The translations under genes and the position numbers were made by a program. From Eledone cirrhosa (Eukaryota): 64,000 nucleotides of DNA. This document shows positions 31,794 through 32,571 of this stretch, one piece after another (position 1 is the first letter of the stretch; every line of letters starts with the position of its first letter). The stretch is from NCBI GenBank assembly GCA_964016885.1, contig OZ024742.1:209622001-209686000 (forward strand), given 5' to 3'. The notes under the pieces were generated by a model. The model did not search any database and was not told the DNA's origin. It saw only the letters and a list, made by a program, of their open reading frames with translations.

Positions 31794-32571
31794 GCCTAAT
31801 TTGCATATCGAGTGAGTTCAGTCGGCCAGGCGCACCGAAAACGATAAGTTGGAATAGAATGAAACGAAATTTCATTTCTCACTCTTAGTACGGCACTTAC
31901 TTAAATGTAAGTATGTATGTATACGTACATACATATATGTATACAGACGTACAGTAGCATGCATATATATATATATATGTATATATATATTCATGCTACT
32001 GTACGTATGTATACTTATATGTATGTACGTATACATACATACTTAAATTTAAGTAAGTGCCGTACTAAGAGTGAGAAATGAAATTTCGTTTCATTCTATT
32101 CCAACTTATCGTTTTCGGTGCGCCTGGCCGACTGAACTCACTCGATATGCAAATTAGGCTTCTCAGCCGTTAATTTTCATAAGGAATGTATATACTTTCG
32201 AACGTTCAACCATCTGGCAGAAGGGTATACGGTGCTGACGATAGCTAACAAGCTTGAAACTAGTACATCGTTCCTGTGTCAGTGTTGAACAAAAAAGTGA
32301 CGTCGTTGCCTTAACACCGTACGGCATAAATCAGGCTGTCAGTTTGTTTACAAACGGACAAAGCGAGCGTTATAATAAACGTCCGCTAAACTGATACGTA
32401 CATATATATATGTGTACCTGTATGTGTATATATATATATATATATATATATATATGCATGCTACTGTACGTCTGTATACATATATGTATGTACGTATACA
32501 TACATACTTACATTTAAGTAAGTGCCGTACTAAGAGTGAGAAATGAAATTTCGTTTCATTCTATTCCAACT
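31794..32571. mobile_element. HHR family C, copy 2: inverted arm plus a terminally redundant 1.25-mer (retrozyme-like)
   Basis: Minus arm 31794-31961 mirrors 31993-32160. On the plus strand catgctactgtacg...ttccaactt occurs at 31993-32108 and again at 32457-32571 (period 464), with one HHR between. Confidence 0.85.
32230..32270 (+). ncRNA. Minimal type I hammerhead ribozyme (family C)
   Basis: cggtg CTGACGA t agct-aaca-agct t GAAA CTAG TA catcg; palindromic ACTAGT. Confidence 0.8.

Follow-up and report, generated by a model that had tools for sequence, protein, structure and literature searches.

A hammerhead-bearing 465-nt repeat family of Eledone cirrhosa with insertion junctions resembling those of Penelope-like elements

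A stretch of 64,000 nucleotides from Eledone cirrhosa (assembly GCA_964016885.1, contig OZ024742.1, positions 209,622,001 to 209,686,000), referred to here as the window, contains at 31794-32571 a copy of a short repeat named family C, for which window positions 32110-32574 (465 nt) serve as the reference unit. We put at roughly three in four the probability that family C is a hammerhead-bearing short retroelement whose copies were written into (TA)n tracts by the reverse transcriptase (RT) and endonuclease (EN) of a Penelope-like element (PLE). The evidence lies principally in the structure of the insertions: a pattern of tandem units, inverted neighbours and one-sided tails within (TA)n is the published signature of PLEs and thus points to insertion of the PLE type. 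The junctions of this young and very numerous family display that signature directly. Judged by the features of its DNA, family C is a non-long-terminal-repeat (non-LTR) retrozyme, that is, a hitherto undescribed family of a known class.

The locus at 31794-32571 is a head-to-head pair of partial copies in which both outer ends are 3′ ends. On the minus strand, the inverted arm (31793-31976) consists of unit 51 to 1 at 31793-31843, followed by unit 465 to about 316 at 31844-31976. On the plus strand, the sense arm (31977-32574, about 1.29 units) runs from about 316 to 465 at 31977-32109 and then through a full unit, 1 to 465, at 32110-32574. The two arms meet in a palindrome of 31781-31976 and 31977-32172, whose 196-nt halves are 95% complementary with a spacer of 0 nt. 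A direct repeat of 150 nt (31960-32109 and 32425-32574, 96% identity, 465-nt spacing) makes the locus terminally redundant, and its second, plus-strand copy is 99% complementary to 31844-31993. The sense arm terminates in ...CCAACTTA followed by T(A)n, a 3′ end of the type called class A below, on the target side of which (TA)n and then a (TG)n microsatellite occupy 32572-32703. The segment of unit 51 to 1 (31793-31843) is a ‘tail’ that extends beyond the usual 3′ end. Furthermore, the unit carries an internal TA/TACA-rich, quasi-palindromic tract (32394-32509, plus strand, unit 285-400), in which many 5′ junctions and palindrome centres of other copies fall.

All three copies of family C in the window are inverted pairs. 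The older copy at 7504-8072 (plus strand, 74% identical to the unit) combines an inverted arm at 7504-7673 (unit 394 to 196, minus strand) with a sense arm at 7689-8072 (unit 2 to 436), and its flanks are (AT)n and (TG)n. The other older copy, at 36016-36251 (plus strand, 83-88% identical to the unit), is a palindrome of the 3′ region (unit about 451 to 317 on the minus strand, 311 to 451 on the plus strand), with a 43-nt tail of unit 1-43 at 36211-36251 and (TA)n on its left. These observations bear out much of an earlier note on the same DNA, which had described a terminal redundancy of 115 nt at a period of 464 (here 150 nt at 465), one hammerhead per unit (here, cores at 32235-32260 and 7790-7815, one in each of these copies), an internal TA/TACA tract, and two homologous copies covering other segments of the cyclic unit (identities of 74% and 83%). 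The palindrome at 31781-32172 was absent from its description. Its proposal of a retrozyme family agrees with the non-coding, hammerhead-bearing, tandem and retrotransposed character found here, as does its statement that the unit has no open reading frame (ORF): the tripled unit contains no stop-free frame of more than 70 codons on either strand, and no ORF of at least 130 aa overlaps the region 31794-32571. The G+C content of family C is 42% (344 scored positions).

Ends and junctions of family C insertions

The ends of family C were mapped at 38 independent loci, comprising 27 of 30 initial loci (left out were L001, being the window itself, and L008 and L013 on account of their overlap with L006 and L014), 10 further loci and the window copy. 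Read in the sense of the hammerhead, 63 3′ ends were scored: 31 of class A, 23 of class B, 5 tails, 2 in the TA tract and 2 ambiguous, that is, 59 of 63 in three fixed classes. Class A ends lie at unit 455-465 and read ...CCAACTTA before TA repeats, and class B ends lie at unit 396-412 and read ...ACTTACATTTA or ...ACTTACA before TA repeats, the two sites being 58 nt apart. Tails continue a class A end by 34-58 nt into the next unit and adjoin non-TA sequence. Apparent BLAST ends at unit 397 and 448 were left uncounted because they arose artefactually from extended TA tracts and from self-complementarity of the 3′ hairpin. In the flanks examined, TA-rich repeats adjoin the ends of both classes, A and B, and the window copies are flanked by (TA)n. 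The inner or 5′ ends are scattered over unit 1 to 417, many of them in the TA/TACA tract. The predicted hammerhead cleavage site coincides with none of the 63 3′ ends, and the inner or 5′ ends, about 49 in number, are all more than 5 nt away from it; copies cross both the unit boundary and this site without a break. It could be deduced from the copies exceeding one unit that the template RNA was continuous over the unit boundary.

Head-to-head pairs make up 24 of the 38 loci. Eighteen of these pairs have one class A and one class B end, two (the window copy and L016) have a class A end and a class A end with a tail, four are other or ambiguous, and none has two class A ends. Among the 13 scored ends of simple insertions, 10 are class A, 2 class B and 1 a tail, indicating that class B ends hardly occur outside inverted pairs. 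The A arms are only 52-73 nt long in 5 of the 18 A and B pairs, and the B arms are at least 197 nt long. Symmetric junctions fall in self-complementary sequence, either the TA tract (window copy, L022 and L024) or the ACTTAC..GTAAGT hairpin (L009, L026 and L061). Asymmetric junctions occur at short sequences common to both sides, such as TTAAG in L025 and GCCGTAC in L028, and asymmetric inverted junctions are also found outside the TA tract, for example, at unit positions 130/241, 201/405 and 94/244.

A search of the 3.0-Gb genome for exact matches to the 30-nt pattern of the family C hammerhead gave 25,198, compared with 0 for the reversed control. The first 100 matches on one contig (C1) fall into 59 clusters, 38 of which hold one hammerhead, and their neighbour pairs closer than 1 kb are same-strand in 30 cases, minus/plus (head-to-head) in 11 and plus/minus in none. 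Tandems range from 2 to at least 7 units; L030 holds at least 7, and runs of 5-8 matches, as well as periods of 420-433 nt, occur among the matches listed.

According to Craig et al. (2021; PMC8557442), PLE insertions are 5′-truncated partial tandems, often with an adjacent inverted 5′-truncated copy and frequently with a tail of 30-40 bp at one end only, and (TA)n is the preferred target in several PLE clades. Family C insertions are alike in their 5′ truncation, partial tandems, inverted neighbour, one-sided tail and (TA)n setting, whereas they differ in having no RT/EN gene and in a one-sided extension of 58 nt (or 34-58 nt) instead of 30-40 bp. The same authors call the mechanism of PLE integration undefined. 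A coding PLE, which we infer to be Neptune-like and whose family is a candidate mobiliser, sits 1.7 kb upstream of the family C locus at 25757-30095. It is a near-perfect inverted pair with arms of about 1965 nt (25757-27722 and 28131-30095) lying 408 nt apart, carries RT and C-terminal GIY-YIG ORFs on both strands, and is flanked by 2.2 kb of (TA)n and 0.4 kb of (AT)n. Its endonuclease has a CX4CxxC linker, a feature tied to TA targeting by Craig et al. (PMC8557442). This PLE family has 47,268 first-look candidates in the genome, many of them in inverted or tandem pairs, and its full unit of 4,286 bp has an ORF of about 1,250-1,300 aa. A hammerhead-like core is also seen within the PLE at 29897-29942 (CUGAAGA ... 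GAAAG, helix I AGUCA/UGACU, an unpartnered G at 10.1); Rfam gave no match to this core at E<=10, and a similar core, CTGAYGATGTTGCAGATGTGCAACGAAAG, is present in other PLE loci.

A fuller but tentative reading, which we hold at well under even odds, is that the strict pairing of A with B ends, the short A arms and the palindrome or microhomology joints record two-start copying on a single continuous ribozyme RNA, probably a circle, in the grip of a PLE enzyme. In our main explanation, too, synthesis of complementary DNA (cDNA) would be primed from each strand of the nicked TA target, beginning at unit 465 on one and at about 407 on the other; in the fuller reading, the second start lies at the 5′ edge of the 58-nt segment that forms the 3′ hairpin. 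The RNA copied would pass over the unit boundary without interruption, and the resulting pair of same-sense cDNAs would be joined where pairing is possible, namely at palindromes or at microhomologies of 4-7 nt. The TA tract looks like the preferred place for joining the 5′ ends. At the window locus, such joining could yield both the palindrome centred on 31976/31977 and the 150-nt terminal redundancy. The locus at 31794-32571 has a single hammerhead, so that double cleavage of its own RNA could not yield a molecule of unit length; it is an ordinary product of the process and no source of circles. If two-start copying is correct, the approximately 25,000 copies would provide a natural read-out of the unexplained tandem, inverted and ‘tail’ structures of PLEs, as well as the first junction-level evidence of retrozyme integration by PLE machinery. 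Models of PLE integration are constrained by the rule that each inverted insertion combines a long with a short 3′ end.

The hammerhead motif and the sister families

Only two cores of the form CTGANGA...GAAAC occur in the window, at 32235-32260 and 7790-7815, compared with a mean of 0.53 in shuffled windows, 8 of 100 of which reached two or more. The motif at 32229-32271 (plus strand) can be written as a minimal type I hammerhead, ACGGUG / CUGACGA / U-AGCU-AACA-AGCU-U / GAA / ACUAGU / A / CAUCGU. Helix I would be formed by ACGGUG (32229-34) as the 5′ strand and CAUCGU (32266-71) as the 3′ strand, and the core by CUGACGA (32235-41), GAA (32256-58) and the A15.1-U16.1 pair (A32259-U32264). The conserved core positions C3-U4-G5-A6-N7-G8-A9, G12-A13-A14, A15.1-U16.1 and H17 are all present. 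Helix II, U-AGCU-AACA-AGCU-U at 32242-55, has a U.U mismatch at 10.1/11.1, and helix III is the palindromic ACUAGU (32259-64) with 2 bp. A17 corresponds to 32265, directly after which cleavage is predicted by homology to a sister family. The register could be fixed because the sister repeat in L025, which has a canonical CUGAUGAG...CGAAAC core, aligns with the Rfam model HH9 (RF02275; 37.7 bits, E 1.9e-8, below the gathering score of 52). A hand-folded register with cleavage after GUC at 32279 had no helix I and was replaced by the sister-based register, and microRNA-like Rfam matches in the region were attributed to the palindrome and the TA tract.

Base pairing was examined in an alignment of five diverged sequences, namely the copies at 32229-32271 and 7790, the sister and two older subfamily copies. 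Over 13 pairs, 90.8% of the cells are paired, compared with 21-47% in slid controls, and 6 of the 13 pairs are altered on both sides; the covariation score was reached by none of 500 shuffles. With five sequences the sample is small, and the majority of the compensatory changes come from the one sister sequence. This supports the assignment of the family C motif as a predicted minimal type I hammerhead. The G10.1-C11.1 pair is absent in family C, being U.U in three aligned lineages and C.A in the 7790 copy; the sister alone has G-C here.

The minimal hammerheads of PLEs have a 2-bp helix III within a palindromic hexamer and are thought to act as dimers. From such relatives, self-cleavage of family C RNA is predicted, probably as a dimer through its palindromic ACUAGU helix III, and so is its circularisation. 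The predicted circular monomer is strongly structured, with a minimum free energy of -156.5 kcal/mol (z -9.8). The axolotl hammerhead HHR_Amex2, which likewise has U.U at the base of helix II, is reported to be active, with monomers cleaving at 22% per hour and dimers much more efficiently (PMC7229834).

Canonical sister families, searched for as CTGATGAG-N12-CGAAACTAGT, have 9,480 matches; their periods are 466-469 nt, and their arrays reach at least 31 units. They are homologous to family C over unit 27-85, from the start through an octamer-like ATGCAAAT box (75%), and over the hammerhead segment (71%), and they share with it a 3′ hairpin preceding the (TA)n end, the ATGCAAAT box, the position of the hammerhead and a near-equal period. 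They also build head-to-head arrays. However, the sister families retain G10.1-C11.1, and Rfam HH9 aligns them at 37.7 bits, in which family C differs. In addition, they are more often found in long arrays (26 clusters per 100 matches, with arrays of 32, 15 and 11), whereas family C is mostly single or in short arrays (59 clusters per 100 matches) and is more numerous. That the family with the weakened hammerhead has more copies, spread more widely, than the canonical sisters suggests a testable link between ribozyme strength and retrotransposition, and ribozyme strength may be linked with dispersal.

The ATGCAAAT box itself lies at 32147-32154 (reverse complement 31799-31806) and at 7724-7731. 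Family C, including the 74% copy, and the canonical sister family all have it at one and the same unit position, and the copy at 36016-36251 is truncated inside it. The box may be a promoter element.

Template and mobiliser of family C

Among templates that are continuous over the unit boundary, a ligated circle is favoured over an uncleaved multimer, at about even odds. Integration of the PLE type from an uncleaved linear multimeric transcript of a tandem array, as assumed for the pseudo-LTRs (pLTRs) of coding PLEs and without involvement of any circle, is a real possibility to which we give appreciably lower odds. Since helix II has U.U at its base and helix III is 2 bp long, many transcripts may remain uncleaved, and an uncleaved multimer gives the same footprint as a circle. 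Source arrays exist, such as that of L030 and the runs of 5-8 matches; coding PLEs form equal tandem and inverted structures without circles; and family C, with its weak hammerhead, outnumbers its canonical sisters both in matches and in clusters per 100 matches. However, 38 of 59 clusters have a single hammerhead, leaving multimer sources in a minority, the starts are internal to a continuous template and not at a defined RNA 3′ end, and the published retrozyme RNAs are mostly circular (PMC7229834).

The divergence among copies fits both templates. It amounts to 2.2% within loci and 4.1% between loci, and units in one insertion differ at 2.3-2.6% (23-26 sites per kb); a difference of about 2.3% between units is a point in favour of a multimer. 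Rare variants common to the arms of one locus number 2.15 per kb, compared with 0.08 per kb between loci, which indicates a common origin of the two arms of one locus. On the sense strand, A>G changes (32) are in mild excess over T>C changes (19), which was judged not significant (estimated p about 0.07-0.09).

Worked out in full, the proposal of the earlier note has a monomeric circular RNA of about 464 nt copied by rolling reverse transcription primed by pairing of (UA)n with (TA)n, with freely permuted, redundant copies as the outcome. We consider this unlikely. It does account for copies that exceed one unit and cross the boundary and the cleavage site unbroken, for tails in which the template runs from unit 465 into unit 1, and for rare variants that are shared 27 times more by the units or arms of one insertion than by different loci; the strong structure of the predicted circular monomer and the largely circular retrozyme RNAs of other animals (PMC7229834) are also in its favour. 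However, priming by the internal TA tract is contradicted by the end map, fitting only 2 of the 63 3′ ends, and the others lie at two fixed sites 50-120 nt downstream or at microhomologies. The end points are anchored at the 3′ end, so that circular permutation stands for the variable 5′ ends and fails for the 3′ ends, and the units of one insertion differ by 23-26 sites per kb.

A fixed 3′ end is what the earlier note had named as evidence against its proposal if the copies were joined to a coding PLE as pLTRs. The 3′ ends are indeed fixed, but family C has no nucleotide similarity to the PLE examined. That the unit is a pLTR or terminal part of a coding PLE, and the copies heavily 5′-truncated PLE insertions, is therefore very improbable, although the fixed 3′ ends, the tandem and inverted structures and the minimal PLE-like hammerhead would agree with it. 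The best match of family C to the abundant PLE, both the truncated one in the window and the full tandem unit of 4,286 bp, is 17 nt. At 30 other GIY-YIG loci, no unit was found that runs in the direction of the gene, and the arrays repeat the one 465-nt unit without coding sequence. This comparison covers one PLE family in full and the 30 other GIY-YIG loci.

An origin at the DNA level, as a satellite formed by unequal crossing-over or fold-back at the TA palindrome or as a non-autonomous Helitron or foldback transposon targeting TA, is scarcely credible, for all the palindromic, fold-back-prone TA tracts, the Helitron genes at 50868-54369 and the hairpin near the unit 3′ end, given about 25,000 dispersed copies with the same two 3′ boundaries and variable 5′ ends, many asymmetric inverted junctions outside the TA tract, an exclusively head-to-head polarity (11 versus 0 tail-to-tail) and covarying hammerhead helices that point to selection on RNA. 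The copies do not fit the Helitron pattern (5′ TC, 3′ CTRR, a fixed 5′ end and insertion between A and T): their 3′ termini are ...CCAACTTA or ...ACTTACATTTA, with ...ACTTA where CTRR would be expected, and their 5′ ends vary and lack a fixed TC.

Several points weigh against PLE-type mobilisation of a hammerhead-bearing RNA. The lack of nucleotide similarity to the abundant PLE bears on it as well, and a neighbouring family C copy was found at only 1 of the 30 other GIY-YIG loci, oriented oppositely, so that the mobiliser is deduced only from the insertion pattern and from co-occurrence. The 38 loci were picked by similarity to unit 41-291 and their end classes read from BLAST chains and a motif script, and classes A and B include a few ends that are 5-10 nt off (455, 458 and 396). 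Positions 10.1 and 11.1 are unpaired in 4 of 5 aligned sequences, and cleavage may thus be weak or lost. The Rfam hammerhead models gave no match to family C at the gathering score, nor at E<=10 in windows of 251 to 1001 nt. If one circle was the template, the differences within an insertion would be due to later mutation or copying error, and a heterogeneous multimer explains them equally well. In a search of sequencing runs, none of those listed as containing family C sequence is on record as RNA; contigs of two runs comprised thousands of short repeat contigs for one (X1) and none for the other (X4) and showed neither joints nor ends, a result that has no bearing on expression.

Neighbouring sequences and comparison with known retrozymes

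The outer end of the tail at the window locus adjoins another repeat family through a shared AGCC at 31793-31796. This left-flank family (31540-31796) has 561 first-look candidates at about 90% identity. In 11 other copies it ends in ...AGCCATCAT followed by a TGTA/TA microsatellite, a terminus also given as ...GGGGGCAGCCATCAT before (TGTA)n/(TA)n, and related sequence adjoins family C in L005 and L027. The right flank (32704-32900) is homologous to the spacer of a higher-order tandem repeat of about 917 bp that contains part of family C (L013/L014), which indicates that a family C copy together with its flank was re-amplified at the DNA level elsewhere. The window consists almost entirely of transposable elements. 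Other than the copies described above, these include ORFs for a Helitron-type Rep (Helitron_like_N) and a Pif1 helicase at 50868-54369 and 19187-20167, and several RVT_1 and zf-RVT fragments at 42015-47240 and 57987-63563.

Non-LTR retrozymes have been described as non-coding tandem units with a type I hammerhead, a circular RNA and coexisting PLEs (PMC7229834; 10.64898/2026.07.22.740005). In the DNA of family C, a non-coding unit, one hammerhead, head-to-tail tandems and coexisting PLEs were all found. Mobilisation of retrozymes by PLEs has been proposed from their co-occurrence and from the similarity between retrozymes and PLE pLTRs (PMC7229834; 10.64898/2026.07.22.740005), and the main texts of these two papers, supplements aside, give no description of retrozyme insertion junctions. 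The retrozyme RNAs of other animals are largely circular (PMC7229834), whereas a circular RNA of family C is a prediction. Moreover, its hammerhead is minimal and PLE-like, with a 2-bp helix III and no evident loop-loop contacts, whereas most retrozymes have canonical type I hammerheads. In other respects, the family resembles the metazoan non-LTR retrozymes of Cervera & de la Pena (2020; PMC7229834), sharing with them low G+C, a single type I hammerhead in each unit, head-to-tail arrays of two or more units, copy numbers in the thousands and coexistence with autonomous PLEs. Its 465-nt unit falls inside the range of 51-972 bp given for retrozyme units in the preprint of Li, Clavereau & Pollet (2026; 10.64898/2026.07.22.740005), and the U.U at the base of its helix II resembles that of axolotl HHR_Amex2 (PMC7229834).

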